Below are positions 10,608-49,863 of a DNA stretch of 64,000 nucleotides, one piece after another. A program made the translations under genes and the position numbers. The stretch's first letter is position 1. Each line of letters begins with the position of its first letter. Location: assembly GCA_016182295.1 (NCBI GenBank), contig JACOXP010000006.1, positions 9,298-73,297 on the forward strand, given 5' to 3'. The notes beneath the pieces were generated by a model, which made no database searches, was not told the DNA's origin, and worked only from the letters and a program-made list of their open reading frames with translations. The stretch comes from Candidatus Harrisonbacteria bacterium (lineage in GTDB: Bacteria > Patescibacteriota > Minisyncoccia > UBA6257 > WO2-44-18).

Positions 10608-11966
10608 ATGAAGACAGTTTTTTTGTGCGTGCCCAATTACGTTTTTTCAACAGATCTTCTGCGCACGCGTTATATCGGTTATCTAGCATCCAAATACAAA
10701 GTAGTGGTTTTTATGCCGATGATCGGTCCAGAAGAAGCGAAGCGCGTCGGTTATTTTCATTCTACAAATGTCCAGTATGTAAAGTGGGAATTGGAAGTGC
10801 CAAAATTTTGGAGCATTTTTAAGTTATTCAGAATAGCGGCAATGACCGAGTTCGATTATCTCGAATCGGTCCGACACTTCTATAAACGACCCACTTTCAA
10901 AAACAATTGGCAGAGACGTTTGGTCCGTTTTTTCGCGAAGCCGTTTGGGCAGTTATTGACGGCTGATTTTTTTACAAAACTTGAAAGCCGTTTACACCCT
11001 CGATCTCTTCAATTTGATAAATATCTCAAGCAATTCCAGCCAAGTTTGGTAATCACGGCCACGCCGGGTTTTAATCCTTTTGAAGCAGAAATGATTTTAT
11101 TGGCTAAACGATCGAAACTGCCAACGGCGGCTGTTAATTTTACTTGGGATAATTTGACAACCAACTGCAACCATATTAGAAAAACTGATTATTTGATTGT
11201 TTGGAACGATATTGTTAAAGAGGAAGCGAAGAAAATTCATCACTACGATCTGGCTAAAGTTTTCGTCGCCGGTGTTAACAAGTTCGACCATTATTTTAGA
11301 AAAGAAGGCAAACTTAGTCGTGAGGAATTCTTAAAAAGTAAAAAATTAGACCCCAAAAGAAAGACAATAGTTTTTTGTAGCAAGCCGAAAACCTACGTCG
11401 AGCAATTAGATCACGTTCGCGGCATATTGGAAGCGCGCGAAAAAGGACGTCTAGCCGCCCCCGTTAACCTATTGATCAGGCCTCACCCGCTGGATAATCG
11501 AGATAATTATAAAGAATTTATAAATTTACCGAATGTTTATGTTGATTATTCTGGTAAATCAATGAAGTTTTCCGCCGAATCAGTTTCCAATAAAATTGAG
11601 ATGGACGAGGAGGATTTAATGAATTTGAAATACACCTTGCAATACGGAGATGTGCACCTTCAATATGGATCAACCCTGGCGCTGGAAGCGGCAATTTTTG
11701 ACAAACCAATGGTTAATATCGGTTTTTTGAAAACCCTTAATCATGACACAAGCTATAAGGTAACTCATTTTTGGCCGGTTATTGAGACGGGCGCTTCTCC
11801 AATAGCTAAAACGCCAGAGGAACTTGTTGATTTAACCAATCAATATTTAAAAAACCCGATGTTGCATAAAGAAAATCGCCGACAGCTTTTGGAAAAATTC
11901 GTGGTCCTGCGCGACGGTTTTGCTTATAAACGGAATGTGGATTTCCTGGGAAACGTTTTATCCTAA
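10608..11966 (+). CDS. GT-B-like transferase with HP motif, uncharacterised family (paralog 1 of 3, plus a divergent fourth)
   Basis: Start taken at MKTVF immediately after the upstream stop (the tabulated ORF extends out of frame into the upstream gene). Shares TPGFNPFEAE..AKR..PTAAVNFTWDNLT, RPHPLD and C-terminal GSTLALEAAIFDKP blocks with 19406-20737 and 24358-25743. Confidence 0.6.
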   Translation: MKTVFLCVPNYVFSTDLLRTRYIGYLASKYKVVVFMPMIGPEEAKRVGYFHSTNVQYVKWELEVPKFWSIFKLFRIAAMTEFDYLESVRHFYKRPTFKNNWQRRLVRFFAKPFGQLLTADFFTKLESRLHPRSLQFDKYLKQFQPSLVITATPGFNPFEAEMILLAKRSKLPTAAVNFTWDNLTTNCNHIRKTDYLIVWNDIVKEEAKKIHHYDLAKVFVAGVNKFDHYFRKEGKLSREEFLKSKKLDPKRKTIVFCSKPKTYVEQLDHVRGILEAREKGRLAAPVNLLIRPHPLDNRDNYKEFINLPNVYVDYSGKSMKFSAESVSNKIEMDEEDLMNLKYTLQYGDVHLQYGSTLALEAAIFDKPMVNIGFLKTLNHDTSYKVTHFWPVIETGASPIAKTPEELVDLTNQYLKNPMLHKENRRQLLEKFVVLRDGFAYKRNVDFLGNVLS

Positions 11967-13575: not shown

Positions 13576-14016
13576 ATGAAATCCAATCCTACTTTACAGT
13601 TAAGCAATTTGAATTACGAAGGCATAAAGATCGATCAGGAATTTTCCTTCGAACGCTTGGTGGACAAGCAATTAGTCGATGAATTTGCCAAATTAAGCGG
13701 CGATTTCAGTCCTCTGCACATGGATGATTCTTACGCCAAAACGACTAAATTCGGCGAACGGATCGCCCATGGGATGCTTTTGGCCAGTTTTTTCTCTGCT
13801 CTGGTGGGGATGTTGTGTCCCGGGAAGAAAGGTTTATATTTATCCCAAACAGCAAATTTTAAAAACCCGTGCCGTTTGGGAGACAAACTTATTGTTATGG
13901 GCAAGATAAAATCAAAATCGGATTCAACCAGAACATTGGAATTAAGCACAATAATTAAGAATACTAACGGGAAAATTTTGGTGGACGGGTCGGCAATGGT
14001 AAAATTTTTAGAGTAA
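13576..14016 (+). CDS. MaoC-like (R)-specific hotdog-fold dehydratase
   Basis: FAKLSGDFSPLHMD...AHGM is the MaoC dehydratase signature; about 146 aa single hotdog. Confidence 0.75.
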   Translation: MKSNPTLQLSNLNYEGIKIDQEFSFERLVDKQLVDEFAKLSGDFSPLHMDDSYAKTTKFGERIAHGMLLASFFSALVGMLCPGKKGLYLSQTANFKNPCRLGDKLIVMGKIKSKSDSTRTLELSTIIKNTNGKILVDGSAMVKFLE

Positions 14017-14019
14017 TTT

Positions 14020-14721
14020 ATGGATCTTAAATTAAAAGGCAAAGTAGTTCTTATATTGGGAGGAACCGGAGGGATCGGCTCTGCGATAACGGCGGAATTC
14101 CAGAAAGAAGGCGCTTCGGTTTGCGCCCATGGGCGTTCGGGCAATTACGCTACTGATCTGACGTCTGAAGACGCGATGGCTGGGCTGGTGGAAAAGGCAA
14201 TGAAACAATTTGGGCGGGTTGATACGGTGATCAATTCTCTATCGACTCCGGTAAAACACGGAGCTTTAGAGTCAAAAAAATGGTCCGATTTTCAGGACCA
14301 AATTGATGTTCAAACACGCTCGTTTGTTGATTTATTGCCGCTGGTTGTGCCGACGATGAAGAGGCAGGGTGGCGGCCGAATAATAAATATTTTAACCACT
14401 TACGTGATTGGGCAGCCCCCGTCCGGGTTGGCTGATTACGTAACTGCCAAATACGCGCTATTGGGCCTGACTAAAGCGGCAGCCAGAGAATTGGGTAAAT
14501 ATCACATAACGGTAAACGCCGTTTCCCCGAGTTTTATCCGCAATAAATTTACCGATCGGATACCGGAAAAATTTGACGAATTGTTAATCAGCCAGACTCC
14601 GCTTGGTCGTTTAGCAACTCCGGAAGATGTGGCGAGAACCGTTTTATTTCTTGCTTCAGAAAAAGCCGAGTTTATTACCGGTGAGAATATCATTGTTGCC
14701 GGTGGCCAAACAATGGATTAA
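14020..14721 (+). CDS. Short-chain dehydrogenase/reductase (FabG-like ketoreductase)
   Basis: LGGTGGIGSAI cofactor motif; YVTAKYAL catalytic YxxxK. Confidence 0.85.
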   Translation: MDLKLKGKVVLILGGTGGIGSAITAEFQKEGASVCAHGRSGNYATDLTSEDAMAGLVEKAMKQFGRVDTVINSLSTPVKHGALESKKWSDFQDQIDVQTRSFVDLLPLVVPTMKRQGGGRIINILTTYVIGQPPSGLADYVTAKYALLGLTKAAARELGKYHITVNAVSPSFIRNKFTDRIPEKFDELLISQTPLGRLATPEDVARTVLFLASEKAEFITGENIIVAGGQTMD

Positions 14722-14732
14722 TTTTAATTTTT

Positions 14733-14960
14733 ATGAAGACACTTGAAGAAATAATTGCCGGCGTTTTAACGATTGATGTCAAATCGGTCAATGATCAGAC
14801 CAGTCCGGAAAATACTCCCGGCTGGGATTCTTTTAACAGTATTCTTTTGGTTAGCGAAGTTGAAAAAAATTTCAACGTCAAATTTGAATTGGATGAGGTA
14901 GTGGGATTGAAAAATGTCGGGGATTTTCGGGCTCTCTTGAAAAAACGCGGCGCTTTTTAG
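14733..14960 (+). CDS. Acyl carrier protein
   Basis: 75 aa, acidic, with GWDSFNSILLVSEVE containing the DS(F/L) phosphopantetheine attachment serine context. Confidence 0.7.
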   Translation: MKTLEEIIAGVLTIDVKSVNDQTSPENTPGWDSFNSILLVSEVEKNFNVKFELDEVVGLKNVGDFRALLKKRGAF

Positions 14961-14962
14961 GA

Positions 14963-16066
14963 ATGAAAATCGAATTTCTGGATAAAAAGGATCGGAGCTT
15001 GCTAGAACAATTTTATCGGGAAAGCTATTCTCCAAAATATATTTTGCTCAGAAAAGATTTTTTTGATTGGTACACGGTTAAAAATCCGAATTACCGAGAT
15101 CGATTCCCGGATGGACAACTTCCAGTTCTGGTTCTTAGAGACGATAAAAGGATCTTGGCTCATTGGGTTTGCGGAGCGCAAAAATTCAATTTTTTTGGGA
15201 GAAACTTTTCTATGTTCTGGACTTCTAATTGGATGGTTCATCCGGATTTTCGCCATCGTGGTTTGGGTGCTCTTATAACTAATTTTTTGCAAAAGCTGCC
15301 GGTGGATGTATTGGCGGCAAATATGGTGACCAAAGAATCAAGGAATGTCTTAGAGCGACTTAATTATCAATATCAAGACCTTAATCGTTATTTAGCGGTT
15401 TTTTCTGACGAAGCTTTAAATTTAGTTAACCACCGAAATGATCCAAGAGTTCGGGATCGTTTGCGGGAAGTTATTATCCCCGCTAAGAATGGCGATTTTG
15501 CCAATATTGAGCCGGTTTCCGCCTTTGCAGAAGACTATAACGAGTTTTGGCACAGCGGTTTCGCGCCCGTAGCGCAAGGCGGAGCGCGCGACGCCGATTT
15601 TTTAAACTGGCGATATCCGCAAGCTCCGTTTTTTGAATATCGCTGTTTTGTGGTTAAAGACAATCAAAAAAAGATAAAAGGGGTGATTGTTTTACGCATT
15701 GATGAGATTCGAAACACTAACTACCGAGCTTGTCGGATGTTGGAATTTTTTACTGATCCGGAATGGGCAAAACTAGCCGCCGAATTTGTAATCAGCTATG
15801 CCCGGCGGGAAAAATGCGTTTTTCTTGACTATTACAATTTGTTTTCCGGTTTTGATTCATTTTTCGCGGAAGCCGGAATTTTAAAGAATGATTCCGTATT
15901 ATCAACGGAAATTCCAAGATTGACTCAACCGGTAGCTCATGAGAATTGGTTTATTAACGCGGTTTTTTGGAAGAGGAATCCTGAAATTTCCAACGAAACT
16001 TTCTTTAATTTCGACAAATGGTATACTACCTCCGGCGATTCAGATCAAGATCGAAAAAATTTTTAA
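14963..16066 (+). CDS. GNAT-fold-like putative acyltransferase, paralog A (candidate carrier-protein-dependent transferase)
   Basis: Paralogous to 27807-28892: shared N-terminal block, the GNAT-like HPDFRHRGLG versus KKDLRSLGYG, and a near-identical C-terminal WYTT.SD.DQDR tail. Sits directly after an ACP gene. Confidence 0.5.
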   Translation: MKIEFLDKKDRSLLEQFYRESYSPKYILLRKDFFDWYTVKNPNYRDRFPDGQLPVLVLRDDKRILAHWVCGAQKFNFFGRNFSMFWTSNWMVHPDFRHRGLGALITNFLQKLPVDVLAANMVTKESRNVLERLNYQYQDLNRYLAVFSDEALNLVNHRNDPRVRDRLREVIIPAKNGDFANIEPVSAFAEDYNEFWHSGFAPVAQGGARDADFLNWRYPQAPFFEYRCFVVKDNQKKIKGVIVLRIDEIRNTNYRACRMLEFFTDPEWAKLAAEFVISYARREKCVFLDYYNLFSGFDSFFAEAGILKNDSVLSTEIPRLTQPVAHENWFINAVFWKRNPEISNETFFNFDKWYTTSGDSDQDRKNF

Positions 16067-16972
16067 ATGATTTCAAATAGCGATCAGTATATTGTCGTCA
16101 ATTATCATTTCGTTTTAAATCCCGAAGATCGTCCGGATTTAGGCGGAATTTTTCCGTGCCTGCCGGAGACTTTTTCTAATCAGCTAAAGTGGCTTAAAAA
16201 GAATTTTACTTTGACAGCCGTGGATGAAGTTTATAGAGCCGCCCGTGAAAAACGGTCCGGCCGTTTTTGCGCGTTAACCTTTGACGATGGCACTCGAGAC
16301 CATCTGGAAATAGTTTTCCCGTTGCTGCGCGAACAGCGAGCGCCGGGAACATTTTTTGTCATAACGGGTCCGTTTGAGGGGAAAATGCCCACTTCGCATA
16401 AAATCTATAGATTAAGATCAGAGCTGACAATCCCCGAATTAATAGATCATTATAACAATTTTTCTAGAAATCCTATGCCCACCGACAAATTTATCGATCC
16501 AACCGAGCGGTATGATGATTTGCTTACATCAAATTTTAAAACCACGATAGCGCGTTTGCCGCACTCCGTGGCGAATGAATTTATGAACGTGCTATTTTCT
16601 CAATTGGGGTGGGACGAAAATCTTGAGGCCAGAAAGCTTTTTTTAATGCCGGAAGATATTGTTAAAATGAAGTCGGGAGGAATGAAATTCGGAGCGCACG
16701 GTGACAGTCACAATCCCTTTCCGGTTTTAAAAGATGATGAAGTGGCAAACGAACTTAGGAATTCAAAACGAATACTCGTTGATCTTTTAGGAGAAGAAGT
16801 TCATTTATTTTCTTATCCGCATGGACAGTATCGCCGCCAACACCCAAAATTAATAGAGGATTTCGGTTTCCACTATGCCGCCACGACCGAAAGACGATCA
16901 ATCAACGGAATCGAAAATAAATTTTTGCTGCCTCGTTTTGACGCCAACGATCTAAAAGATATTCAAAAATGA
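16067..16972 (+). CDS. Polysaccharide deacetylase (CE4, NodB homology domain)
   Basis: TFDDGTRD and HGDSH motifs of CE4 deacetylases. Confidence 0.8.
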   Translation: MISNSDQYIVVNYHFVLNPEDRPDLGGIFPCLPETFSNQLKWLKKNFTLTAVDEVYRAAREKRSGRFCALTFDDGTRDHLEIVFPLLREQRAPGTFFVITGPFEGKMPTSHKIYRLRSELTIPELIDHYNNFSRNPMPTDKFIDPTERYDDLLTSNFKTTIARLPHSVANEFMNVLFSQLGWDENLEARKLFLMPEDIVKMKSGGMKFGAHGDSHNPFPVLKDDEVANELRNSKRILVDLLGEEVHLFSYPHGQYRRQHPKLIEDFGFHYAATTERRSINGIENKFLLPRFDANDLKDIQK

Positions 16973-17904
16973 AGTACTCTATAAACGATAAACATATAGT
17001 AATTAATTATCATTACGTGGAAAATCCCAGTCGAAACTGGTCCGGTATCCATCCCTGCTCAATTGATGAGTTTAATCGCCAAGTCAAATTCCTATCCGAA
17101 AACTACAAATTTGGCTCTCTGGTTGACGTTTTTCAGGCGGCCAAAAATAACAACGCGGAAAGGGTATGCGCGATAACTTTTGATGACGGTTTACGCGATC
17201 AATATGAAAATACCCTCCCGATTCTTAAAAAAGGCTCAGCTACGGCGACTTTTTTCATCATCACCGCGGCTCTAGAAGGCCGCTTGCCGCCCGCTCACCG
17301 CATTCATGTTTTGTTATCAAAAATCGCGATAAACGACCTAATTAACCTTTTTAATGAATATTTAAAGGAATTTTATTCGGATCTCCAAAAACAATATTTT
17401 ATTCCGAAAGATCGGCGTTTAACTCAACGCCGCCTTCATGAGGACATTCCAACGGCTAATTTTAAAGAAACGCTAATAATGTTGCCGGAGGATATCAAAG
17501 CCCAGTTTTTACGGTATTGTTTTAAAAAACAAGGACTGGATTCGGAACGGCTTTCTCGTCAAATATTTATGGGGGCGGGAGAGATTCGGGAATTACAGAG
17601 AGCGGGTATGCAAATTGGCGCTCACACCCATCAACATTACGCCTTAGACACAATGAATCCGGAAGCAATCAAAAATGACATCAATCTTAATAAAGCCGGC
17701 TTGGACTCGGTTTTGGGATTTGTGCCAGAGGTGTTTTCCTACCCTCATGGGCGCTATCAGCCGGCGGCCGTATCTATTTTGCGAGATGAAAAATTCAAAC
17801 ACGCTGTCACAATAGAGAAACGTGGAGTATCCGGTTCAGACGACCCGTTGTTAATGCCTCGGTATGACACGAACGATCTCCGAGACTTTTTAAATTTACG
17901 ATAA
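16969..17904 (+). CDS. Polysaccharide deacetylase (CE4), tandem paralog
   Basis: ITFDDGLRD, HTHQH motifs; clear paralog of the preceding gene. Confidence 0.8.
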   Translation: MKYSINDKHIVINYHYVENPSRNWSGIHPCSIDEFNRQVKFLSENYKFGSLVDVFQAAKNNNAERVCAITFDDGLRDQYENTLPILKKGSATATFFIITAALEGRLPPAHRIHVLLSKIAINDLINLFNEYLKEFYSDLQKQYFIPKDRRLTQRRLHEDIPTANFKETLIMLPEDIKAQFLRYCFKKQGLDSERLSRQIFMGAGEIRELQRAGMQIGAHTHQHYALDTMNPEAIKNDINLNKAGLDSVLGFVPEVFSYPHGRYQPAAVSILRDEKFKHAVTIEKRGVSGSDDPLLMPRYDTNDLRDFLNLR

Positions 17905-19409: not shown

Positions 19410-20737
19410 AGACGATCTTTCTTTTTGTCCCGCCGAGTCTGATTTCGGATCTTTTACGCACCCCGTATTTGAAGCATGCGGCAGAAAAATTTCGGGTTAT
19501 AGTTTTTACTAGAACAGTTGATCAAGAAACCGGCGAGCGGGAATATCTTAAATCGCCAAACGTGATTTACCATCGTTGGAAAACCCATAACTCCAAATTG
19601 CTGGGAAGGTTCAAGTTTTTCCGAATAGACGGAATCCACCAATTTAATTATTTGAGGGGAGTCGCCCAGTATTATCAAAAAAACATTTTTCTTTCCGATC
19701 GCCGGGCTCGACTAATTAGATTTTTGACCAGGCCTTTTGGAAAAATTTTGACAACCGATTTTTTTACCACGGTTGAAAAATTTTTAATAAAAGTGCCGAG
19801 GGAATTTCGAGACGCCGTAAAAAAATATCAACCATCCGCGGTAGCCGTTTCCACCCCGGGAATGACTGTTTTCGAAGCCGAAGCGATCTTGATGGCCAAA
19901 CGATTGGGGGTGCCGACCGCGGCCGTTAATTTCAATTGGGATAATCTTACTTTGCAGAAAGCCCACTTAATGCGGAGATGTGATTTCTTGCTGGTTTGGA
20001 ACGATATCATCAAGGAACAGGCGATCAAAATTCACAAATATCATCCGAATAAAGTGATGGCAACAGGCGTAATGCGTTTTGATCACTACTTTCAGAAAGG
20101 AAAAGAAGAAATTAGCCGTGATGAGTTTTTGAAAACCAAAGGTTTGAATCCTAATTTGAAAACCATTCTAATTATTACCGAAAGCAAGAATTACTCATTT
20201 CAGTTAAAATGGTTTCGCAAATTGTTCGAACTCCGCGAGAGAGGGAGTATTCCCTATGCCAATGTTTTTATTAGAATTCATCCCCACGATACGCCAGAAG
20301 CTTATAAAGAGTTCTCTGGGCTACCGGATGTTAATGTGGAATTAGCCGGGCAACCGATGGTTAATCAAGCTGACCGAATTGAAATGCGCGTTTCCGATTT
20401 AGAAAATCAAAAACTGACTATTAAACACACGGATATTAATTTCAACTATTGCTCTACAATGTCCTTGGAATCGATGATATTTGACAAACCGGTAGTGATT
20501 TTTTATGAACCAGGTCATTACGACACCGAAAAGACTCATTTCAAACCCATTCTGGACGTTGGTTCTGCAAAACTGGTTAGAAGCCCAGAAGAGCTTGCTT
20601 TAACTATCAAACAATACTTGACTAATCCGGGGTTAGATAGAGAAAAACGCAAGCTCGTCCTTGATCGCTATATGCCATTTAGGGATGGTCAATCCCCAAA
20701 ACGCAGCGTCGAAGCGCTGGCAAAAATACTAAAATAA
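19406..20737 (+). CDS. GT-B-like transferase with HP motif (paralog 2)
   Basis: TPGMTVFEAEAILMAKRLGVPTAAVNFNWDNLT, RIHPHD, CSTMSLESMIFDKP; paralog of 10608-11966. Confidence 0.6.
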   Translation: MKTIFLFVPPSLISDLLRTPYLKHAAEKFRVIVFTRTVDQETGEREYLKSPNVIYHRWKTHNSKLLGRFKFFRIDGIHQFNYLRGVAQYYQKNIFLSDRRARLIRFLTRPFGKILTTDFFTTVEKFLIKVPREFRDAVKKYQPSAVAVSTPGMTVFEAEAILMAKRLGVPTAAVNFNWDNLTLQKAHLMRRCDFLLVWNDIIKEQAIKIHKYHPNKVMATGVMRFDHYFQKGKEEISRDEFLKTKGLNPNLKTILIITESKNYSFQLKWFRKLFELRERGSIPYANVFIRIHPHDTPEAYKEFSGLPDVNVELAGQPMVNQADRIEMRVSDLENQKLTIKHTDINFNYCSTMSLESMIFDKPVVIFYEPGHYDTEKTHFKPILDVGSAKLVRSPEELALTIKQYLTNPGLDREKRKLVLDRYMPFRDGQSPKRSVEALAKILK

Positions 20738-24357: not shown

Positions 24358-25743
24358 TTGAAGAATTTTTGGCTTTCTAGGAGTTTTAAGATAATAAGTA
24401 TGAAAACCGTATTTATAGCCGTTTTTCAAGGAACGGAATTTCGGAATATTATCCGGACAGACATTTATAAAGAATTGATCAATCAGCCGAATGTCCGCTT
24501 GGTTCTATTTACTGACAATGAAGTTAAGCGTGATTATTTCCAATCACAATTTAACGCTCCAAACGTTATTTATGAAATAGCCAATGATTATCGGCCGCAC
24601 TGGTCGGCGCCGATTTTTGGTTTTCTAAAATATAATCTGATCAAAACCGGCACTTTAGACATGAAACGCCGCAGAAAATTGGAACAAAATGGCAACTATT
24701 TTAATTATTATTTCCGATGGCTTACCAATCGCCTGTTGGCTAATCGATTGTCAAGAATTATAACTCGCTGGGCGGCGTTTCATTTAGTGCGTGACGATTT
24801 TTTTGCCTCTTATTACGATAAATACCAGCCACAAATGGTTCTATTAGCTCATCTTTTCAGCGATATCGAGACGTCAATGCTAAGAGAAGCAAAACGGCGA
24901 AAAATAATTTCTGTTGGATTGATAAACTCCTGGGACAAGTTAACTTCCAGAAATATGCTTTTGCTTTTGCCGGACAAAATGCTGGTCCATAATCGGATAG
25001 TGAAAAATGAAGCTATTCGTTTGGCTGATATGTCGAAAAAGGATATAACAATAGTCGGCATACCGCATTTCGACCATCATTTTAAAACGCCAAGGTCTTC
25101 CAAAAAGGAATTTGCTAAACGATTTGGCTTGGATCCTAACAAGCGATACGTAGTTTTTTGTCCGGAGGGAAAGACCTATATTGATTCTGATGGGCAAATG
25201 GCCAGCTTAATTGATGAAATGATTGCTAGCGGAGAATTGCCGAATGACCTCCAACTAATAATCCGCTTGCCGCCAAATGATATCATTGATATTTATCCAT
25301 ACAAAACAAAAGTGGTCATTCAGCAAGCTGGCAAGCGTTTTTCCAAGAAACGCGGAGTAGATTGGGATATGGACGAAGAAGATTTTCGGTTATTGGCTGA
25401 TACAATGCGTCATGCTTCGGTGATAATTCTTTATGCCTCAACGGTAGCAATGGACGCGGCGGTTTTCAATAAACCTCTTATCAGCGTGAATATTAAATTT
25501 CCAAATTATCCTTCCACTGATTGGGTTTATGAATATGAACATTGCGGCACTCTTTTGCGAACCGGTGGTTTGGATTACGTAAGGACACGCGCCGATTTGG
25601 CTAATTCTATCAAGCGATATCTTGAAAATCCTCAATTCAATGACGACGGTCGGAGCAGGATTCGAGAGGAGCAGTGTCATTATTTAGACGGCAGGTCAGG
25701 GAAACGTGTGGCCGAATACATCCTCGATTTGTTAAACGTTTAA
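24358..25743 (+). CDS. GT-B-like transferase with HP motif (paralog 3)
   Basis: MKTVFIAVF N-terminus (an alternative start at 24400 matches the paralog N-termini better) and C-terminal ASTVAMDAAVFNKP block; the HP position is degenerate (LPPND). Confidence 0.55.
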   Translation: MKNFWLSRSFKIISMKTVFIAVFQGTEFRNIIRTDIYKELINQPNVRLVLFTDNEVKRDYFQSQFNAPNVIYEIANDYRPHWSAPIFGFLKYNLIKTGTLDMKRRRKLEQNGNYFNYYFRWLTNRLLANRLSRIITRWAAFHLVRDDFFASYYDKYQPQMVLLAHLFSDIETSMLREAKRRKIISVGLINSWDKLTSRNMLLLLPDKMLVHNRIVKNEAIRLADMSKKDITIVGIPHFDHHFKTPRSSKKEFAKRFGLDPNKRYVVFCPEGKTYIDSDGQMASLIDEMIASGELPNDLQLIIRLPPNDIIDIYPYKTKVVIQQAGKRFSKKRGVDWDMDEEDFRLLADTMRHASVIILYASTVAMDAAVFNKPLISVNIKFPNYPSTDWVYEYEHCGTLLRTGGLDYVRTRADLANSIKRYLENPQFNDDGRSRIREEQCHYLDGRSGKRVAEYILDLLNV

Positions 25744-25746
25744 TAA

Positions 25747-26088
25747 ATGGTCATGAAAGGAATCGGAATCGATATAATCAAAATAAATCGTTTTAGAAGA
25801 ATCCCTTATAAGAAGCGACCGTCTTTTTATAAAAATATATTTACTAATCTCGAAATTGAATATTGTCTTGGTAAAAAAGATCCTTACCCGAGTTTTGCCG
25901 CGAGGTTTGCCGCAAAGGAGGCAATCGTCAAAGCGGTTGGTGGGACTATTTATAAAGCGAGACAAATCGAGATTCGTAAAGGCAGTTCTGGCCGGCCGAT
26001 GGTGAAGCTTCAAGGTCGAAAAAAGATACTGCTCTCTTTATCTCATGACGGAGAATACGCCGCCGCTATTGCTCTATGGTTAAACTAA
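25747..26088 (+). CDS. acpS: Holo-[acyl-carrier-protein] synthase (4'-phosphopantetheinyl transferase)
   Basis: GIGIDIIKINRF...FAAKEAIVKA is the canonical AcpS signature; 113 aa. Confidence 0.8.
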   Translation: MVMKGIGIDIIKINRFRRIPYKKRPSFYKNIFTNLEIEYCLGKKDPYPSFAARFAAKEAIVKAVGGTIYKARQIEIRKGSSGRPMVKLQGRKKILLSLSHDGEYAAAIALWLN

Positions 26089-27608
26089 TACAAGATTATT
26101 TTTCTATTTCCGCCAAAAACGACCCTGGTAAGTTAGCTGTTGATGTCGGAGAAGATGCCTTATCTGAAAAAGAGAAAGAAGTTTTTAATAAATCTTTTGG
26201 CTGGATTGATAATTTCAGCAACCAATTTGCCAGATATTTAAAAGAAAAAAGCGTCAAGAGGGGCGATCGCGTTGCTTTTATATTCAAGAAACAGAATCTT
26301 TCGTATTCGATCGCCTCAATCTTAGCAATACTTAAATGTGACGCTATTTATGTTCCGATACATTACAAATTGCCGCCAAAGCGAATTATCAAAATTTTAA
26401 GCGATTCGGACGCTAAATTTCTAATTTGCTCGTCTTTGTTTGCGAAAGACCTTAAAAAACATGCCGTGCTGTCCAATTTTCCGTTTTTTGAGATAGATAA
26501 AGAAAAAATAAATATTGAGAAAAGAGGCGCGGGAGCTTTGAGTTACGCCAACAACAGTGACGATGCCGCTTATATTATGTACACCTCTGGATCAACCGGC
26601 AATCCGAAGGGCGTGGTGATAACTCACGGAAATATTATCAACGCGACCGAATGGGCAGTAGAAGAATTCGGTATTACCAGCGAAGATCGAATGTCTCAGC
26701 ACCCCCCGTTGAATTTTGATCTTTCAACTTTTGATTTATATTGCGCCTTTAAATCCGGAGCTAGTTTGCATCCAGTGCCTGAAGACGCATCAATTTTCCC
26801 CGGAGAGTTAGTAAGATTTATTGAAAACAATAAATTGACCATCTGGAACTCGGTCCCTTCGGTGATGGTTCAAATGGCGGTTGCCGGATTAGTCAAACCA
26901 GACAGGATGCCGACGCTGAAAAAAATATTTTTCAATGGCGAGGGATTTCCAACAAAATTTTTGGCGGAATGGATGAAAATTTATCCGGATAAAGAATTTG
27001 TTAACATGTATGGGCCAACGGAAACAACCGTGCAATGCACTTTTTATCGCGTTCACGAACCACCGAAAGATTTGACTAGATTAGTTCCGATTGGCAAAGC
27101 TTGCCACAATGTTGAGGTTTTTGATGTAGACGGCGAGCTTTATGTCGGCGGACTTGGTGTCGGGAGGGGCTATTGGAATGATCCTCAAAGAACCTCTGAA
27201 TTATTTATCAATTATCCTGGCAGAGGTCGGGTATATAAGACGGGGGATTTGGTTCGTTTGTTGCCGGACGGAAATTATGAATTTATTGGACGGAGGGACA
27301 ATCAGGTGAAAATTCATGGTAATCGCATTGAGTTGGGAGATATTGAATCGGCAATTAATTCCCTTCCATATATCAGGGAAGCAGGCGTGATTGCTGTAAC
27401 TGCTTCTGAAATTGAGGATAAAAAAGTTATCGCTTTTGTAAGCGTTAATGAAGATAAAAAACCGGAGTCATTAAAATCTGATCTGAAAAAATTACTCCCG
27501 CTTTATATGATCCCACAGCAAATCGAAATCAGGGATAGTTTGCCAAAAACTGGCAATGGCAAAATAGATCGAGTTAAACTTAAAAATGAATATGGAAGAG
27601 AAAATTAA
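26076..27608 (+). CDS. Adenylate-forming enzyme (DltA-like amino/acyl-acid--carrier protein ligase)
   Basis: YTSGSTGNPKGV (A3 core), YGPTETT, GELYVGG..GRGY, YKTGD, and a terminal GKIDR lysine. A stand-alone adenylation domain of about 510 aa. Confidence 0.8.
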   Translation: MVKLIQDYFSISAKNDPGKLAVDVGEDALSEKEKEVFNKSFGWIDNFSNQFARYLKEKSVKRGDRVAFIFKKQNLSYSIASILAILKCDAIYVPIHYKLPPKRIIKILSDSDAKFLICSSLFAKDLKKHAVLSNFPFFEIDKEKINIEKRGAGALSYANNSDDAAYIMYTSGSTGNPKGVVITHGNIINATEWAVEEFGITSEDRMSQHPPLNFDLSTFDLYCAFKSGASLHPVPEDASIFPGELVRFIENNKLTIWNSVPSVMVQMAVAGLVKPDRMPTLKKIFFNGEGFPTKFLAEWMKIYPDKEFVNMYGPTETTVQCTFYRVHEPPKDLTRLVPIGKACHNVEVFDVDGELYVGGLGVGRGYWNDPQRTSELFINYPGRGRVYKTGDLVRLLPDGNYEFIGRRDNQVKIHGNRIELGDIESAINSLPYIREAGVIAVTASEIEDKKVIAFVSVNEDKKPESLKSDLKKLLPLYMIPQQIEIRDSLPKTGNGKIDRVKLKNEYGREN

Positions 27609-27816
27609 AAAATTTCTGGAAAAAGAAACTCAAAAGACAATTGTTGATAACAAAGCCAATCTTTTAGAGTTGGGAATCTTAGATTCTTTCACGATGATAC
27701 GATTATTGAATTTTTTGGAACAAGATTTAAAGATATCAGTAAAAATGGAAGAATTGTCGCCCCAAAATTTTTCTTCTATCAACAATATGATTAAGACCAT
27801 TGAATCATGGAAATAA
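27586..27816 (+). CDS. Carrier protein (DltC-like / peptidyl carrier protein)
   Basis: 76 aa; LGILDSFTMIRLLNFLEQ contains the conserved LDS(F/L) serine. Immediately follows the adenylating enzyme with start/stop overlap. Confidence 0.7.
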   Translation: MNMEEKIKKFLEKETQKTIVDNKANLLELGILDSFTMIRLLNFLEQDLKISVKMEELSPQNFSSINNMIKTIESWK

Positions 27817-28892
27817 GATTTATTAAAAAATCCGAATGGGAGCAATTGCGTAATTTTAATGCCGATCAGTATCGTCCCGATCACATCCTTACCAACAAGC
27901 AATACTATGATTGGCAATTCGACAATGTGTTTAATGAACAAAAAGATAGTTATACAACACTCGGCCTCTTTAGCAAGGGAGAGTTAATTGGAACTTTTGG
28001 AATGTTTACCGCTCCTTATAATTGTTTTGGCCGGCAAGTTACGGCAAATTGCTTGGCTAATTTGATAATTAAAAAAGATCTCCGCAGTTTGGGCTACGGC
28101 TATCGGTTATTGGAACGAGCTTCTAATTTCAACGATTTAGCTATCGATCATACCATCAATCAACAGGCTTGGCCGATGTTTATAAAATCTGGCTGGGTCG
28201 GCGAGAATTTGAAAAGATTTATTTATATTTTTAACCTCGAAGCAATGAGAAAATTGATAATTAATGATGATACACGTCAATTATCGGCCAGTCCCACGAA
28301 TCCGGTAATCGTTAGGCATTGGCGCTGGGAACCAGTAGAAAAATTTAATGAGAATTTCGATATTTTCTGGGAGAAAGTCAAAAACCGTTACCCAATTACA
28401 ATTAAAAGAAGCAGTCAGTATCTAAACTGGCGTTATGTAGATACGAATTTGATGAAATACCAAATATTCGCCGCTGTGGGTTCTGACGGAATTTCCGGAT
28501 TTGCGGTTTTTCGAACCGAAAATGTCTATCGAGACAATCAAGCAATCGGAGTAAAAATCGGCCGATTGGTTGATTTTGTCGCCGACGCGGCGGCCGAACG
28601 ATTTATTCTTGGAAAGGTGATCGAGTACGGTCGTCAATCTGGCTGGGATGGCTTAGATTATTTTTTCAGCGGTCAAAACCGCATAGAATCTCTAGAAGAT
28701 TTAGGATTTTTTGATGGCGATTCTGCCGGTTATGCATCCATTCCCATCCTTTTTCATCCTATCAGCACTAAGCGGATGCATCTGAATTTCGCGATCAAGC
28801 TGATTAATCCGGAATTAACAAAACAACCCGCCGATAAGTTGTATAATTGGTATACAACGAAAAGCGACGGAGATCAGGACCGTCCGTATTAA
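27807..28892 (+). CDS. GNAT-fold-like putative acyltransferase, paralog B (candidate carrier-protein-dependent transferase)
   Basis: Paralog of 14963-16066 (shared YYDWQF / FFDWY N-terminus and WYTTKSDGDQDRPY tail). Directly follows a carrier protein gene. Confidence 0.5.
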   Translation: MEIRFIKKSEWEQLRNFNADQYRPDHILTNKQYYDWQFDNVFNEQKDSYTTLGLFSKGELIGTFGMFTAPYNCFGRQVTANCLANLIIKKDLRSLGYGYRLLERASNFNDLAIDHTINQQAWPMFIKSGWVGENLKRFIYIFNLEAMRKLIINDDTRQLSASPTNPVIVRHWRWEPVEKFNENFDIFWEKVKNRYPITIKRSSQYLNWRYVDTNLMKYQIFAAVGSDGISGFAVFRTENVYRDNQAIGVKIGRLVDFVADAAAERFILGKVIEYGRQSGWDGLDYFFSGQNRIESLEDLGFFDGDSAGYASIPILFHPISTKRMHLNFAIKLINPELTKQPADKLYNWYTTKSDGDQDRPY

Positions 28893-28901
28893 TTAACAGA
28901 T

Positions 28902-30071
28902 ATGATGAAATCAAAACCCAAACGAAAGATTTGTTTTCCAATAATGAGTCGTATCCACTACGCTCGACAGCGTGGTCTGTTAGATTTGATTAAAAAGACT
29001 CCGGGCCTCGATCTGCAGTTGATAGTTGGCGGTTCAGTTCTTTTGGATAAGTACGGAGAAAGATTTTTGCCGGCTATAAAGTCCGCCGGTTTTCCAGTGC
29101 ACGAAATTCTTTATAATGTTATCGACGGCGGCAGTCATGTTTCAATGGCAAAGACCGCCGGATTAACCGCTCTAGAAGTGTCCAATTCTTTTCACAAACT
29201 CAATCCCGATATCGTTTTGATTCGTGGAGACCGCTTCGAGCAATTAGCAACCGCGATGGTCGCCGCTTATTTGAATAAAACAGTGGCGCATATTGAAGGC
29301 GGAGACGTTACCGGAACGATTGATGAAAGCGTTCGTCACGCTATTACCAAGTTATCTCATATTCATTTTGTTACCAATGAAGATTCTCGCAGACGTGTTG
29401 TCCAAATGGGGGAAAACCCCGATTTGGTTTTTAATGTCGGATCTCTTGATATTGAATTCGCAGCCAATGTTGATAAAAAAAATAACGGTCAAATAGTAAA
29501 TCAAACCGGCGTTGGAACGGTAATAAACACCCGCAAGCCATTTTTGATGGTTATGCAGCACCCGGTAACCACGGAAAAGAATAATCGTAAAAATATGGAA
29601 ATTACTTTAAAAGCCATAGATCGTTTAAACATGCCCACCGTGGTTTTTTGGCCGAACAGCGACGCTGGCACCAATGAAGTCGCGAAAGCTATCAGAGTGT
29701 ACCGAGAAGAAGGGAGGCTTAAGAATAAAAAAATTCGGTTTGTTACCGATCTTCTGCCGGAAGGTTTTATTGCTTTATTGCGTAGATCAAGCGCGCTTAT
29801 TGGAAACTCTTCGGCGGGCATCAAGGAATCTTCTTATTTAGGCGTTCCGGTGGTTAATATAGGCACAAGACAAAGCAACCGATTACGGGGGGGGAACGTT
29901 ATAGACGTTGACTATGACACTCGGAAAATAGAAAATGCCATTAGAAAACAATTGCGGCACGGGGCATATCCTAAGTCCGATATTTATTACAAACCCGACA
30001 CCAGTAAAAAAATTGTCGATATATTAAAAAAAGTCGATCTTTACAGCCAAAAGAAATTTCATGAAATCTAA
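28902..30071 (+). CDS. UDP-N-acetylglucosamine 2-epimerase, hydrolysing type (NeuC/LegG-like)
   Basis: LIRGDRFE ... AHIEGGDVTG ... HIHF match the NeuC-type hydrolysing 2-epimerase motifs (GDRxE, HIEGG). Confidence 0.75.
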   Translation: MMKSKPKRKICFPIMSRIHYARQRGLLDLIKKTPGLDLQLIVGGSVLLDKYGERFLPAIKSAGFPVHEILYNVIDGGSHVSMAKTAGLTALEVSNSFHKLNPDIVLIRGDRFEQLATAMVAAYLNKTVAHIEGGDVTGTIDESVRHAITKLSHIHFVTNEDSRRRVVQMGENPDLVFNVGSLDIEFAANVDKKNNGQIVNQTGVGTVINTRKPFLMVMQHPVTTEKNNRKNMEITLKAIDRLNMPTVVFWPNSDAGTNEVAKAIRVYREEGRLKNKKIRFVTDLLPEGFIALLRRSSALIGNSSAGIKESSYLGVPVVNIGTRQSNRLRGGNVIDVDYDTRKIENAIRKQLRHGAYPKSDIYYKPDTSKKIVDILKKVDLYSQKKFHEI

Positions 30072-30792
30072 AGTTTTAGGAGTAATTACGGCTCGAGGCG
30101 GTTCCAAAGGAATCCCCGGGAAAAATATCAAACCATTATTGGGCAAGCCGCTTATTGCTTATACAATTGAAGCGGCAAAAAATTCTGGAGTGATCGATCG
30201 GCTAATCTTATCGACGGACGATCCGGAAATCGCAAGGGTGGCTAAAGAATACGGTTGCGAAGTGCCGTTTATGCGTCCGGCGGAGTTGGCTCAAGACAAG
30301 ACTCCGCATTTACCGGTAATGCAGCATGCCGTTCAGTGGCTGAAAGAAAACGAAAACTATTATCCGGATTATGTCATGATTTTTCAACCGACTTCTCCGC
30401 TTCGGCAAGCGTTTCATGTCCGGGAAGCGGTGGAGTTGATCCAGAAAACCGGAGCCGATTCGGTATTGAGCGTCTCCGAAATACCTAATCATTTTACGCC
30501 GCACAAGGCGATGGTAGTGGATGATCGGGGAATGCTTTCTCTTTTTAGCGGAAACCCAATTCGCAAGAGAACCGCCCGTCGCCAAGACCTCGCGAAAACT
30601 TATTGGAGTGTTGGCTCAATCTACCTTTTTAAAACAGATTTGCTTTTTCATTCGGAAGATCCTAATTTTTTTGGCGACACGGTCGCCCGCTGCGAAATTA
30701 ATCCAAAATACGTAGTTGACATCGACGTTCCCGAAGACTGGGAAGAGGCCGAGCGGGCTATGAAAAAATTACAAAATGAGCAGTCACGTTAA
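30061..30792 (+). CDS. CMP-nonulosonate (acylneuraminate) cytidylyltransferase, NeuA/LegF/PseF-like
   Basis: VLGVITARGGSKGIPGKNIKPLLGKPLIAYTI is the hallmark N-terminal motif of CMP-NeuAc/CMP-Kdo synthetases. Confidence 0.85.
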   Translation: MKSKVLGVITARGGSKGIPGKNIKPLLGKPLIAYTIEAAKNSGVIDRLILSTDDPEIARVAKEYGCEVPFMRPAELAQDKTPHLPVMQHAVQWLKENENYYPDYVMIFQPTSPLRQAFHVREAVELIQKTGADSVLSVSEIPNHFTPHKAMVVDDRGMLSLFSGNPIRKRTARRQDLAKTYWSVGSIYLFKTDLLFHSEDPNFFGDTVARCEINPKYVVDIDVPEDWEEAERAMKKLQNEQSR

Positions 30793-31583: not shown

Positions 31584-32411
31584 ATGAAAGAACTCTCCGT
31601 AATTATACCGGCCTTTAACGAGGAAGCTGGAATCAGCGATGTGCTAGGACGGTTAGAGGAAGTATTGATGGGGAAATTTAAATATGAAGTAATTGTGGTG
31701 GATGACGGTTCTAGTGACAAAACTGGCGAGGTGGCCAAAATGGCCGGAGTGAAAGTGGTGCGGAATCCCGCTAATGCCGGCTATGGCCGGTCTTTGAAAC
31801 GTGGGATTGAGGCGGCAACCCACGAATACGTCGCTATTACTGACGCTGACGGGACTTATCCGCTTAATCGAATTCCTGATCTGGTGGAAAAACTTGATCA
31901 GGGTTTTGACATGGCGGTGGGAGCAAGGACTGGAAAGCATTATTGGGCTGGTCTATTCCTTAACCCCGCGCGCCTCGTTTTTAAATGGTTGAGCGAGTTC
32001 GTTGTTGGTCGAAGAATTCCGGATGTTAATTCCGGTTTGCGAGTTTTCCGAAGAAGCAAGGTAATGCCATTTTTTAACGATCTTTCCAACAGATTTTCTT
32101 TCACGACATCTTTGACATTGATTTTTATATTAAAAGGATATTTTGTGTGTTATCTTCCGATCGAATACCACGCCCGCAAAGGAAAATCTAAGGTGAGCTA
32201 TATCCACGATGCCATGAGAACCCTGCAGATTATCTTCACGATAATTGCCAAGTATAATCCGTTTAAACTGTTTTTTGCCGCCTCCTTGCCGATATTGGCG
32301 GCTACCATTGTCTTTTTAGTTTTTCAACTATGGCTATACGCCATGATCTCCTTATATTTTGTTATTCTGCTGTTACTGTTGGGATTTTTCTCCGCCATAT
32401 TTTCTAAATAA
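31584..32411 (+). CDS. GT2 polyprenol-phosphate sugar synthase-like glycosyltransferase (GtrB/ArnC-like) with C-terminal TM helices
   Basis: LSVIIPAFNEEAGI...VDDGSSDKTGEVA, DADGTYP, then two C-terminal TM helices. Start taken at MKELSV; the tabulated ORF begins 45 nt earlier. Confidence 0.75.
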   Translation: MKELSVIIPAFNEEAGISDVLGRLEEVLMGKFKYEVIVVDDGSSDKTGEVAKMAGVKVVRNPANAGYGRSLKRGIEAATHEYVAITDADGTYPLNRIPDLVEKLDQGFDMAVGARTGKHYWAGLFLNPARLVFKWLSEFVVGRRIPDVNSGLRVFRRSKVMPFFNDLSNRFSFTTSLTLIFILKGYFVCYLPIEYHARKGKSKVSYIHDAMRTLQIIFTIIAKYNPFKLFFAASLPILAATIVFLVFQLWLYAMISLYFVILLLLLGFFSAIFSK

Positions 32412-32415
32412 ATTT

Positions 32416-38720: not shown

Positions 38721-39842
38721 ATGAACCCAGAAACTATTTGGTCAAAAATTCAAAAGGGAGTTTTTATAATCGCCGAGGCCGGGAAGAATTTTATTCAGAC
38801 AGAAGAGGACCGGCCGGTAGAGGAATATTTGAAAAACGCGATGCGATTAGTTGACGAAGCGGCGAAAGCCGGAGCGGACGCGATTAAATTCCAAACGCAT
38901 AATGTGGAAGATGAAGTGCTTAATATCGACTTTACCTCGCCCCATTTCAATAAAAAGGGAAGCGATCGATATACTTGGGTGACTCGCAATACCAAAGCGA
39001 CACCCGTGGATAAATTTTGGAGACCGCTTAAAGAATATTGTGATCAGAAAGGTATTGTTTTTTTCTCCACGCCGATGTCCAAGGGGGCGGCGAAGATTTT
39101 AAACGAAGCAGGCGTGAATCTTTGGAAAATCGGCTCCGGAGATATTTTAGATTTTGTGTTATTGGATTATCTGCGGCAAAGCGGAAAACCGATCATTATC
39201 TCATCGGGCATGAGTACCTTGGAGGAAGTGGAACAAGCGGTGAAATTTCTTCGCGAAAAAAACGATAAGGTGGCTTTGCTGCATTGCGTTTCCAAATATC
39301 CTTGCCCGCCCGAAGAACTTCATTTAAAGACGATTGATTTATACAAAGAAAAATTTGATATGCCTATCGGTTTTTCTGACCACTCTATTGGAATCGAGCC
39401 CGATTTGGTGGCGGTAGCGATGGGGGCGACGATTTTGGAAAAGCATTTTTCCATGGCCAGAACTTTATGGGGTTCTGATCATAAAGTTTCCATGACGCCT
39501 CAAGAATTATCGGATTTAGTCAGCGGCGTAAAAAAAGTTATTAACGACGCCGGCGAAAGGCAGAAAGTATTAAATGGCGATTTTGCTAAAAGGGGAATGG
39601 GCAGCAAAACCAAAGTTTTACAAGAAGGAGAAGCGGTCTTCCGGCCATTATTTAGAAAATCCTTGATGGCCGGTCAAGATATTCCGGCGGGAACGGTGAT
39701 TACGGCAGAGATGGTTTACGCGATGCGCCCCCAGCAGTATGCTGGCGGCTTGCCATCTGAAAGATATGAAGATGTAATCGGTAAAAAAACCTCCAAAGCT
39801 TTAAAAAAATTCGACCCTCTTATTCAGGGCAACTTGGCTTAA
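38721..39842 (+). CDS. N-acetylneuraminate/nonulosonate synthase (NeuB/LegI/PseI family) with C-terminal SAF domain
   Basis: FIIAEAGKNF...AIKFQTH N-terminal TIM-barrel motifs and a C-terminal antifreeze-like (SAF) domain typical of NeuB. Confidence 0.8.
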   Translation: MNPETIWSKIQKGVFIIAEAGKNFIQTEEDRPVEEYLKNAMRLVDEAAKAGADAIKFQTHNVEDEVLNIDFTSPHFNKKGSDRYTWVTRNTKATPVDKFWRPLKEYCDQKGIVFFSTPMSKGAAKILNEAGVNLWKIGSGDILDFVLLDYLRQSGKPIIISSGMSTLEEVEQAVKFLREKNDKVALLHCVSKYPCPPEELHLKTIDLYKEKFDMPIGFSDHSIGIEPDLVAVAMGATILEKHFSMARTLWGSDHKVSMTPQELSDLVSGVKKVINDAGERQKVLNGDFAKRGMGSKTKVLQEGEAVFRPLFRKSLMAGQDIPAGTVITAEMVYAMRPQQYAGGLPSERYEDVIGKKTSKALKKFDPLIQGNLA

Positions 39843-39931
39843 ATAAAAATCCCGACCTTGACCATTTTTTGTTTTTTTGGTATCTTCTTTGCGTTGCAGT
39901 TCTTTCCAAAATCTATTTTAATGGAGGTTGT

Positions 39932-49787: not shown

Positions 49788-49858
49788 CGGGGTGTAGTAT
49801 ACCGGCAGTACGCGCGCTTCGGGTGCGTGAAGACCGGGTTCAATTCCCGGCACCCCGA
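49788..49858 (+). tRNA. tRNA-Pro (anticodon CGG), no genomically encoded CCA
   Basis: Hand-folded cloverleaf: acceptor CGGGGTG/CACCCCG, D-stem GTAT/GTAC, anticodon stem CGCGC/GCGTG with loop TTCGGGT (U33, CGG, G37), T-arm CCGGG-TTCAATT-CCCGG; discriminator A followed by CA. Confidence 0.8.
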
Positions 49859-49863
49859 CATTT

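Follow-up and report, generated by a model that had tools for sequence, protein, structure and literature searches.

Nonulosonic acids of bacteria and archaea carry many different N-acyl groups, which influence recognition by the immune system, the binding of phages and the chemistry of the surface. To our knowledge, few of the enzymes that attach an N-acyl group beyond acetyl and acetimidoyl have been identified. In Tannerella, an N-glyceroyl group was found on pseudaminic acid and its genetic basis was called unknown (Friedrich et al., 2017; PMC5378307), and our literature search retrieved no later solution for the N-glyceroyl groups of nonulosonic acids. Here we describe two paralogous proteins, termed ParA (367 residues, 14963-16066) and ParB (361 residues, 27807-28892), which are encoded in a 64,000-nucleotide stretch of DNA (the window) from a metagenome-assembled genome of Candidatus Harrisonbacteria, a member of the candidate phyla radiation (CPR, Patescibacteria). 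Each is preceded by the gene of a small carrier protein, and we propose that both re-acylate a sugar amine freed by a CE4 deacetylase, with the cargo of this carrier as acyl group. To this model as a whole, from the fold of the proteins to the installation of the sugar by TagB-like transferases, we assign a probability of roughly 0.55.

The nearest mechanistic precedent is provided by NodB, NodF and NodA, where a CE4 deacetylase frees an amine that is re-acylated by an N-acyltransferase in conjunction with a dedicated acyl carrier protein (ACP). The use of NodB has been described (PMC5380657). NodA, a protein of unrelated fold and family, transfers a fatty acid onto chitooligosaccharide, whereas Par is a tandem GNAT with a proposed C3 hydroxy-acid or amino-acid cargo, and neither Pfam nor NCBIfam contains a NodA family that matches Par. 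A similar logic is found in LpxC and LpxD, whose transferase is also unrelated to Par. In the synthesis of butirosin, which as secondary metabolite differs from the surface glycans considered here, BtrI and BtrH participate in moving an ACP-assembled acyl group to the amine of an amino-sugar-type molecule, and BtrH is not known to be a GNAT. A further point of comparison is the cj1299-cj1308 region of Campylobacter jejuni, which presumably encodes additional ACPs and the amino-acid-activating cj1307. This region, which serves flagellar glycosylation with a nonulosonic acid, contains the FkbH-domain gene cj1302 (PMC7099621). Glyceroyl-type N-substituents are known on the sugars of C. jejuni, and we found no characterisation of the transferases of this locus in the literature.

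Results

Fold and conserved features of the Par proteins

The sequence-only reading of the window had described ParB as a GNAT-like paralog of ParA with a common C-terminal tail, and both parts of this description hold. The two proteins align over their full length with 23% identity (E=2e-27) and terminate in NWYTTKSDGDQDRPY and KWYTTSGDSDQDRKNF, which have WYTTxxDxDQDR in common. AlphaFold2 models of both paralogs, for which alignments of 73 homologous sequences served as input, show pLDDT values of 94.6 and 93.4 and pTM values of 0.91 and 0.92, and each consists of two GNAT domains in tandem. The top 37 matches of a Foldseek search are all N-myristoyltransferases (NMTs; E ~1e-14, TM ~0.54, ~370 aligned columns). 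In a structural comparison, single-domain GNATs score ~9-10 and FemA only 8.8, and the FemABX family of aminoacyl-tRNA-dependent dupli-GNATs is not the closest structure. On the basis of these models, we are confident in predicting that Par adopts a tandem GNAT fold that is nearest to NMT and to Eis-type proteins (Eis, Eis2, MAB_4324; Pfam Acetyltransf_9).

The sequence identity of Par to NMT amounts to 9-15%. When compared to the sequences of the PDB, the family profile finds NMT as best match (E=1.5e-5), which covers residues 26-112 only, and a match across both halves was not obtained. A search of the PDB with the single sequence of ParB returned noise, and no Pfam NMT family is among the matches listed for Par at E up to 0.1. 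NMTs are eukaryotic enzymes that employ myristoyl-CoA to modify the N-terminus of proteins, whereas Par is found in bacteria and archaea, presumably acts on a sugar amine with a carrier protein as donor, and displays its own invariant motifs YLNWRY and WYxTKxDGDQDR. Unlike Par, Eis contains a third, SCP2-like domain and transfers acetyl groups from acetyl-CoA onto aminoglycosides and proteins. The Pfam scores of Par are below the gathering cutoffs of the GNAT families: the N-terminal matches of ParB reach 20.3 for PF13527 (cutoff 25) and 18.3 for PF00583 (cutoff 20.7), while ParA scores 24.4 for PF13508 (cutoff 27) and 21.7 for PF00583 (cutoff 20.7), in the latter case with no single domain stretch that passes. 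Neither protein has a match in NCBIfam. That a eukaryotic NMT is the best PDB match of a prokaryotic family, both by fold and in the profile-to-sequence search, is a likeness that may be relevant to how NMT arose.

Both proteins contain the donor loop of GNAT motif A (R/Q-x-x-G-x-G/A), as R93-S-L-G-Y-G98 in ParB and R97-H-R-G-L-G102 in ParA. This loop resides in the N-terminal half, with the consensus RxLGxG and a conservation of R93 of at least 90%; the C-terminal half shows no such loop in its consensus. Invariant residues include W188, L206, W208 and R209 (the latter three part of the YLNWRY motif), P318, and D356, D358 and R359 of the tail. The chain ends 1-2 residues past D-x-D-R in 167 of the 184 members with a tail motif. 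In NMT the C-terminal carboxylate serves as general base, and for Eis the C-terminal Phe402 was proposed to act as remote base (reviewed in PMC4964394). We infer that the tail of Par has a catalytic or acceptor-binding role and that catalysis probably proceeds much as in NMT: the fixed C-terminus, consisting of D-x-D-R and the one or two residues that follow, would reach the active site and there either take up a proton from the amine or hold the acceptor.

Carrier proteins and their loading enzymes

The four genes that had been read from the sequence as a dedicated phosphopantetheinyl transferase, a stand-alone adenylation enzyme, a 76-residue carrier protein and ParB were recovered as open reading frames (ORFs) on the + strand, at exactly the positions given in that reading, and the annotation of the first three is confirmed by their Pfam and NCBIfam scores (Table 1). 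Successive genes of this group overlap by 13, 23 and 10 bp and are therefore probably translated as a single unit. ParA was likewise correctly placed behind the ACP of an FkbH module, where it is preceded by FkbH, a MaoC-type dehydratase, an SDR reductase and a carrier of 75 residues. The AcpS-type transferase, whose score for the acpS equivalog domain TIGR00516 (54.5) is slightly under the cutoff of 59.8, presumably converts both carriers to the holo form. Since carriers A and B show no detectable BLAST similarity and their loaders are different enzymes, an origin of the two modules by segmental or simple tandem duplication is not supported. Paralogous pairs or triplets are in the window also formed by the TagF-like proteins, the CE4 enzymes and a group of ~630-residue membrane proteins.

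The coupling of Par to carriers was investigated in 80 retained species-level loci (designated by L numbers), where ORFs were called and classified with hidden Markov models seeded from the window, and 48 of which are complete in the sense of at least 5 kb of sequence on both sides. Of 77 loci, 35 have a carrier that directly precedes Par or is fused to it (as overlapping or abutting gene in 30 and within a single reading frame in 5), and 53 have one no more than 6 kb away. Mapping of domains identified carrier::Par fusions in Verrucomicrobia (L008, L028, L031) and FkbH::carrier::Par fusions in Pirellulaceae and Aureliella (L069, L027, L026), and nine database homologs of ~450 residues contain an N-terminal PF00550 domain. 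The adjacency first noticed in the window is thus conserved elsewhere. From genomic context and fusions, we infer that the acyl group used by Par is supplied on the phosphopantetheine arm of a dedicated carrier protein and not on CoA, a proposal that we regard as very probable.

The idea that two loading chemistries feed one type of transferase generalises beyond the window. Among the complete loci, 17 contain FkbH, 18 an adenylating enzyme, one both and 34 either of them, and the two loader types are interleaved on a neighbour-joining tree of Par. With loaders that are interchangeable, interleaved on the tree and equipped with several specificity codes, Par behaves as a generic outlet for any cargo that is loaded on a dedicated carrier. 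In many loci, MaoC recurs beside FkbH-carrier-Par. An AcpS gene joins the module mainly in CPR and Nanoarchaeota, consistent with CPR/DPANN hosts that would have no housekeeping fatty-acid system.

Two variations of this arrangement were observed in CPR loci. In L006 (9102-10908) and L010 (9109-10931), an A-domain-carrier-Par module directly precedes an FkbH-carrier pair that lacks a Par of its own, and it may be that one Par serves two carriers or that a second transferase is encoded elsewhere. In L005 (5423-5884) and L006 (5516-5974 and 14254-14712), a small classical GNAT of ~152 residues, which is absent from the window, is inserted between the TagF-like gene and AcpS and could acetylate the alpha-amine of a transferred amino acid.

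Association with deacetylases and nonulosonic acid genes

When the neighbouring ORFs of the 80 loci were clustered with no prior labels, and the loci containing each family were counted, Par itself was retrieved in 71 loci and the CE4 polysaccharide deacetylase, in 56, was its commonest neighbour. NeuA (31), FkbH (29), NeuC (28), the TagB/TagF-like GT-B proteins (24), the adenylating enzyme (22), NeuB (21) and SDR proteins (20) follow, and the Wzt-type ABC transporter ATPase (14), DegT aminotransferase (12) and AsnB-like amidotransferase (12) are found in fewer loci. Of 76 loci, 37 encode the deacetylase directly 3' of Par or as a fusion with it, including a domain-mapped Par::CE4 fusion in Polyangiaceae (L065). 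Two CE4 paralogs are encoded 3' of ParA in the window, both of which have no signal peptides and retain the CE4 motifs TFDDG, HxxxH and YPHG. As judged from their sequences, we propose that these are cytoplasmic deacetylases, which would expose the amine that Par acylates.

This most conserved partner of Par and the nonulosonic acid genes were absent from the account of the sequence-only reading, which had suggested that carrier-dependent transferases decorate a glycan. Adjacency and fusions support its view of a carrier-fed transferase; the simple addition of a group is not favoured, as the CE4 deacetylase and the nonulosonic acid genes instead point to the replacement of an N-acyl group, for which a deacetylase would be needed to swap the acetyl inherited from UDP-GlcNAc. 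ParA and ParB would thus probably exchange the N-acetyl of a sugar for a glycerate-derived or amino-acid group. We consider the underlying logic of deacetylation followed by re-acylation rather likely.

With respect to the acceptor, a nonulosonic acid intermediate receives about even odds for this locus. As to the type of nonulosonic acid (Neu, Leg or Pse), the window NeuB scores 282.9 for NeuB_NnaB and 228.4 for PseI, both under the respective cutoffs, the window NeuA has PseF as its nearest model, and no DegT aminotransferase was found in the scanned part of the window. The scarcity of DegT aminotransferases in Par loci argues that the edited nitrogen would be the GlcNAc-derived one, N5 of a sialic-acid-like sugar. 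The same carrier-dependent chemistry might instead be directed to a glycan hexosamine that has lost its N-acetyl group, for example UDP-GlcN, lipid-linked GlcN or ManN or the nascent polymer, with the Neu genes being merely co-resident. CE4 enzymes, as judged from PDB matches, typically act on GlcNAc-type residues, the module on Azospirillum chromids is accompanied by GT4 genes with no Neu genes nearby, and 18 of the 48 complete loci contain none of NeuA, NeuB and NeuC within 8 kb. We nevertheless find a hexosamine acceptor unlikely, given that NeuA, NeuC and NeuB are, together with FkbH and the TagF-like proteins, among the commonest neighbours after the deacetylase, and that in several phyla the module is enclosed by NeuB on one side and NeuC/NeuA on the other, with the order NeuB-SDR-FkbH-carrier-Par-deacetylase-NeuC-NeuA in several Acidobacteria. 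Moreover, NeuC and then NeuA are located directly 3' of ParB in the window and of Par in L011 and L012.

Substrate preference of the adenylation enzyme

The first description of the adenylation enzyme as DltA-like, with for example an alanyl-type decoration, holds as a resemblance only. As in the Dlt system, which decorates a cell-surface polymer, a stand-alone adenylation enzyme is combined with a small dedicated carrier, and the DltA and DltC models are the best named NCBIfam matches of the two proteins. Their scores remain below the equivalog cutoffs, with 292 for TIGR01734 (cutoff 559.85) and 289.2 for NF003417 (cutoff 476) in case of the enzyme and 34.9 for NF003464 (cutoff 68) in case of carrier B, which is thus not assigned as DltC. 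The best PDB sequence matches of the enzyme are A-domains of nonribosomal peptide synthetases (NRPSs). Its ten-residue specificity code, whose analysis had been suggested along with the first description, reads DLFNFNMVQK, with Asp235 and Lys517 present, and is maintained as DLF[ND][FLC]N[ML]VQK in nine CPR orthologs. Compared to the DltA code DLMTMCTVAK, it differs at 6 of 10 positions, including an Asn in place of the D-Ala-selecting Cys at the position of PheA-301, where both the DltA and the GrsA reference sequences were entered by hand and solely validated by GrsA, which gave its published code DAWTIAAICK. We thus reject an assignment as DltA ortholog with specificity for D-Ala. The pocket is predicted to be lined by the bulky residues Phe, Phe and Met and the polar residues Asn, Asn and Gln, which suggests that the cargo is probably a small, polar alpha-amino acid. 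Among other loaders of the family, we find a DltA-like code (DLHFLCLIAK) and several enzymes that have no Asp235. Absence of this residue is typical of acyl-AMP ligases.

The described resemblance raises the possibility of a cytoplasmic analogue of teichoic acid D-alanylation, in which the TagF-like proteins would be glycerophosphotransferases and the DltA/DltC-like pair would supply an amino acid for the O-acylation of a polyol-phosphate polymer by Par. CPR bacteria are generally regarded as monoderm, and a TagF-like gene is located directly 5' of AcpS in all orthologous CPR loci. Still, we regard this scenario as quite improbable in light of the described low scores and the altered code, and since no MBOAT protein (DltB) or DltD was found among the window ORFs scanned (1 to ~50 kb), where a cytoplasmic GNAT would instead be the transfer enzyme. 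Par is in addition also fed by FkbH and acyl-AMP ligases and paired with a deacetylase, which is sensible for N-acylation only, and TagB-like domains are found in proven transferases of pseudaminic and legionaminic acid (Pse/Leg) derivatives. Even less credit is given to Par being an ordinary acyl-CoA-dependent N-acetyltransferase, or a GNAT decarboxylase or loader of the CurA/GphF type whose matches span one domain only, with another enzyme handling the cargo of the carrier.

Proposed pathway

On the frame of gene content, paralogy, fold, conserved neighbours and gene fusions, we propose the following order of steps. AcpS would initially prime carriers A and B. FkbH would then move a glyceryl unit from 1,3-bisphosphoglycerate onto carrier A, in line with its described glyceryl-loading chemistry (PMC3679948). 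The subsequent action of MaoC and SDR on the glyceryl unit may leave a glyceroyl group or a dehydrated and reduced C3 acyl group such as lactyl, and no literature support for the formation of lactyl by FkbH, MaoC and SDR was retrieved. Loading modules composed of FkbH, DH and KR provide the background for such a lactyl product. In parallel, carrier B would receive an alpha-amino acid, small and probably polar, from the adenylation enzyme. The two CE4 deacetylases would strip the GlcNAc-derived N-acetyl in the cytoplasm, most likely from an intermediate of the NeuC/NeuB/NeuA pathway, and ParA and ParB would re-acylate the freed amine, each with its own cargo. Finally, NeuA would activate the sugar and the TagB-like transferases would probably install the modified CMP-sugars.

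Several observations weigh against this model. ParB has no adjoining deacetylase, as both CE4 genes of the window are found beside ParA. A basal clade of the family (L062-L088) has no carrier nearby, and some members may therefore use acyl-CoA. The Azospirillum chromid loci contain deacetylase, ACP, adenylating enzyme and Par with no Neu genes within 9 kb, thus the acceptor would not always be a nonulosonic acid and other amino sugars are possible. The editing could take place at the stage of UDP-GlcNAc, ManNAc, the free sugar or the CMP-sugar. We know of no specificity code that equals DLFNFNMVQK. Finally, in both models confidence is lowest for the last ~10 residues (pLDDT 46-66 and 59), which comprise the invariant tail motif.

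Organization of the locus

The genes of both modules and of their surroundings are listed in Table 1. The remainder of the window encodes a Wzy_C-type ligase or polymerase, a Wzx flippase, an initiating Bac_transf protein, GT2 glycosyltransferases, methyltransferases and a formyltransferase, which fits to one large surface-glycan locus.

Table 1. Genes of the two carrier-protein modules and associated genes of the window.
Feature	Coordinates	Strand	Evidence
TagB/TagF-like paralog, directly 5' of FkbH module	10608..11966	+	weak PF04464 match; 28% identity, E=7e-41 to 24358-25743
FkbH-like enzyme, 525 aa	11994..13571	+	TIGR01686 275.9 bits (cutoff 146.65); DLDNT HAD motif and SCR cysteine motif in translation
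MaoC-type dehydratase	13576..14016	+	PF01575 63.6 bits
SDR reductase of FkbH module	14020..14721	+	PF13561 159.4 bits
Carrier protein A, 75 aa, ACP-like	14733..14960	+	PF00550 29.4 bits (cutoff 20.8); GWDSF serine motif
ParA, 367 aa, ParB paralog with same fold, proposed acyl-carrier-protein-dependent N-acyltransferase	14963..16066	+
CE4 polysaccharide-deacetylase-family protein 1	16067..16972	+	PF01522; TFDDG, H-x-x-x-H and YPHG motifs intact
CE4 deacetylase-family protein 2, paralog of protein 1	16969..17904	+	PF01522; 33% identity, E=2e-70 to protein 1
TagB/TagF-like GT-B protein, directly 5' of AcpS	24400..25743	+	PF04464 45.2 bits; start set at MKTVF methionine
AcpS-type 4'-phosphopantetheinyl transferase, 113 aa	25747..26088	+	PF01648 60.8 bits (cutoff 25); TIGR00556 73.1 (cutoff 45.35)
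Stand-alone NRPS-type adenylation enzyme, 510 aa	26076..27608	+	PF00501 and PF13193; TIGR01733 346.4 bits (cutoff 317.4)
Carrier protein B, 76 aa, PCP/DltC-like	27586..27816	+	PF00550 26.8 bits (cutoff 20.8); ILDSF serine motif
ParB, 361 aa, tandem-GNAT (NMT/Eis-like) transferase, proposed aminoacyl-carrier-protein-dependent N-acyltransferase	27807..28892	+
NeuC-type hydrolysing UDP-GlcNAc 2-epimerase, directly 3' of ParB	28902..30071	+	TIGR03568 362 bits (cutoff 235.9)
CMP-nonulosonate synthetase, NeuA/PseF-like	30061..30792	+	PF02348; TIGR03584 PseF 198.1 bits, just below cutoff 205.7
NeuB-family nonulosonate synthase	38721..39842	+	PF03102 254.9 bits

The window contains three TagB/TagF-like (PF04464) paralogs (10608-11966, 19406-20737 and 24400-25743) with 26-28% identity, two of which are located directly 5' of the carrier modules. 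With its mechanical start at 10308, the first would extend ~300 bp into the PhyH-like gene before it, and its probable start is the MKTVF methionine at 10608, as in the other two paralogs; the third is called from 24400 in L001. In Tannerella, transferases of Pse/Leg derivatives were described to contain a TagB-like domain (PMC5420450), and on the strength of this precedent the TagB-like proteins of the window may be candidates for nonulosonate transferases rather than glycerophosphotransferases.

Other genes of the locus are of interest in their own right. Two paralogous polytopic membrane proteins of 627 and 656 residues (20743-22626 and 32359-34329; 37% identity, E=9e-130) have no Pfam match, and their homologs adjoin TagF-like genes in the CPR loci L005, L006, L009 and L010. 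They may constitute an undescribed glycan polymerase or transferase. The D-2-hydroxyacid dehydrogenase at 34353-35309, whose best match is phosphoglycerate dehydrogenase (232 bits, below cutoff), recurs 3' of NeuA in 11 of 80 loci (e.g. L008, L011, L022, L056). Straight after NeuB, an ORF of 403 residues (39869-41080) has no match in Pfam or NCBIfam. A transketolase is split into two genes, with the N-terminal ThDP half at 3687-4496 and the pyrimidine and C-terminal half at 7600-8517, which are separated by genes for a methyltransferase, a LysA-like PLP decarboxylase and an SDR protein, all within the glycan locus. A comparable pair is found in the CPR locus L006, and the split transketolase suggests another unusual sugar-tailoring step. 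The single tRNA of the window, tRNA-Pro (CGG) at 49788-49859, is located just beyond the glycan locus, after genes for a DsbA-like protein and a CCA-adding enzyme. The GC content is even across the window (0.38-0.49), with no signal of a foreign island.

Discussion

In our study, we have identified ParA and ParB as members of a large, undescribed family of NMT/Eis-like tandem GNATs. An exhaustive profile search retrieved 1,056 clusters at 50% identity for E<=1e-30 and 8,328 for E<=1e-10, and a scan of one genome per species identified 279 Par relatives. In a word-index search, homologs are named only 'hypothetical protein', 'GNAT family N-acetyltransferase' or, in case of fusions, 'acyl carrier protein'. 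The initial impression of an uncharacterised family is sustained by our searches, in which no family model or name, no structure and no paper on Par came up, nor any publication on a glycan pathway that combines FkbH with a GNAT.

The hosts of Par comprise CPR bacteria, Nanoarchaeota, Bathyarchaeia, Verrucomicrobia, Acidobacteria, Planctomycetes and Chloroflexi. Paenibacillus luteus and Brevundimonas lutea are cultured hosts, and distant homologs reside on chromids of Azospirillum. Archaeal metagenome-assembled genomes with Par belong to Nanoarchaeota (L019, L021) and Bathyarchaeia (L076). Both nanoarchaeal loci contain a carrier, AcpS and a CE4 deacetylase alongside Par. The loader is FkbH in L019, the only one of the two with Neu genes, and an adenylating enzyme in L021; in L076, the deacetylase is the only partner of the module that was seen. 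Since the proteins of Nanoarchaeota are nearest to the CPR versions, we suggest that Par was exchanged between episymbiont lineages of two domains. A search of a plasmid collection with ParA gave no match. A distant full-length homolog (21% identity) is encoded on the Escherichia albertii plasmid p3RM15115 (L089, 11627-12694) and is found on six 62-kb plasmids from wild birds, as an orphan with no carrier, deacetylase or sugar genes nearby.

What we propose as new is a GNAT-fold N-acyltransferase of NMT-like architecture that is fed by a carrier protein and coupled to a deacetylase in nonulosonic acid loci. More tentatively, the family may embody a widespread, modular system for the editing of N-acyl groups of sialic-acid-like sugars, in which a CE4 enzyme would strip the acetyl and an NMT-like GNAT would install the cargo of a plug-in loader, such as FkbH, an A-domain or an acyl-AMP ligase. 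Such a system could provide the missing genetic basis of non-acetyl N-acyl groups, including glyceroyl, lactyl, aminoacyl and others, in CPR, DPANN, Verrucomicrobia, Acidobacteria and Planctomycetes, and Par would possibly be the nearest prokaryotic relative of NMT.

Par thus is a concrete candidate, as part of a four-part cassette of loader, carrier, tandem GNAT and CE4 deacetylase. The natural fusion proteins are suited for structural work, and distant homologs are available in the cultivable Azospirillum, Paenibacillus and Brevundimonas. If the proposal is true, the chemistry of GNATs would be extended to aminoacyl-carrier-protein donors, and the interchangeable loaders could help to make analogues of sialic acid. 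For CPR and DPANN organisms, the family indicates that, with their small genomes, they invest in an elaborate tailoring of their surface sugars.

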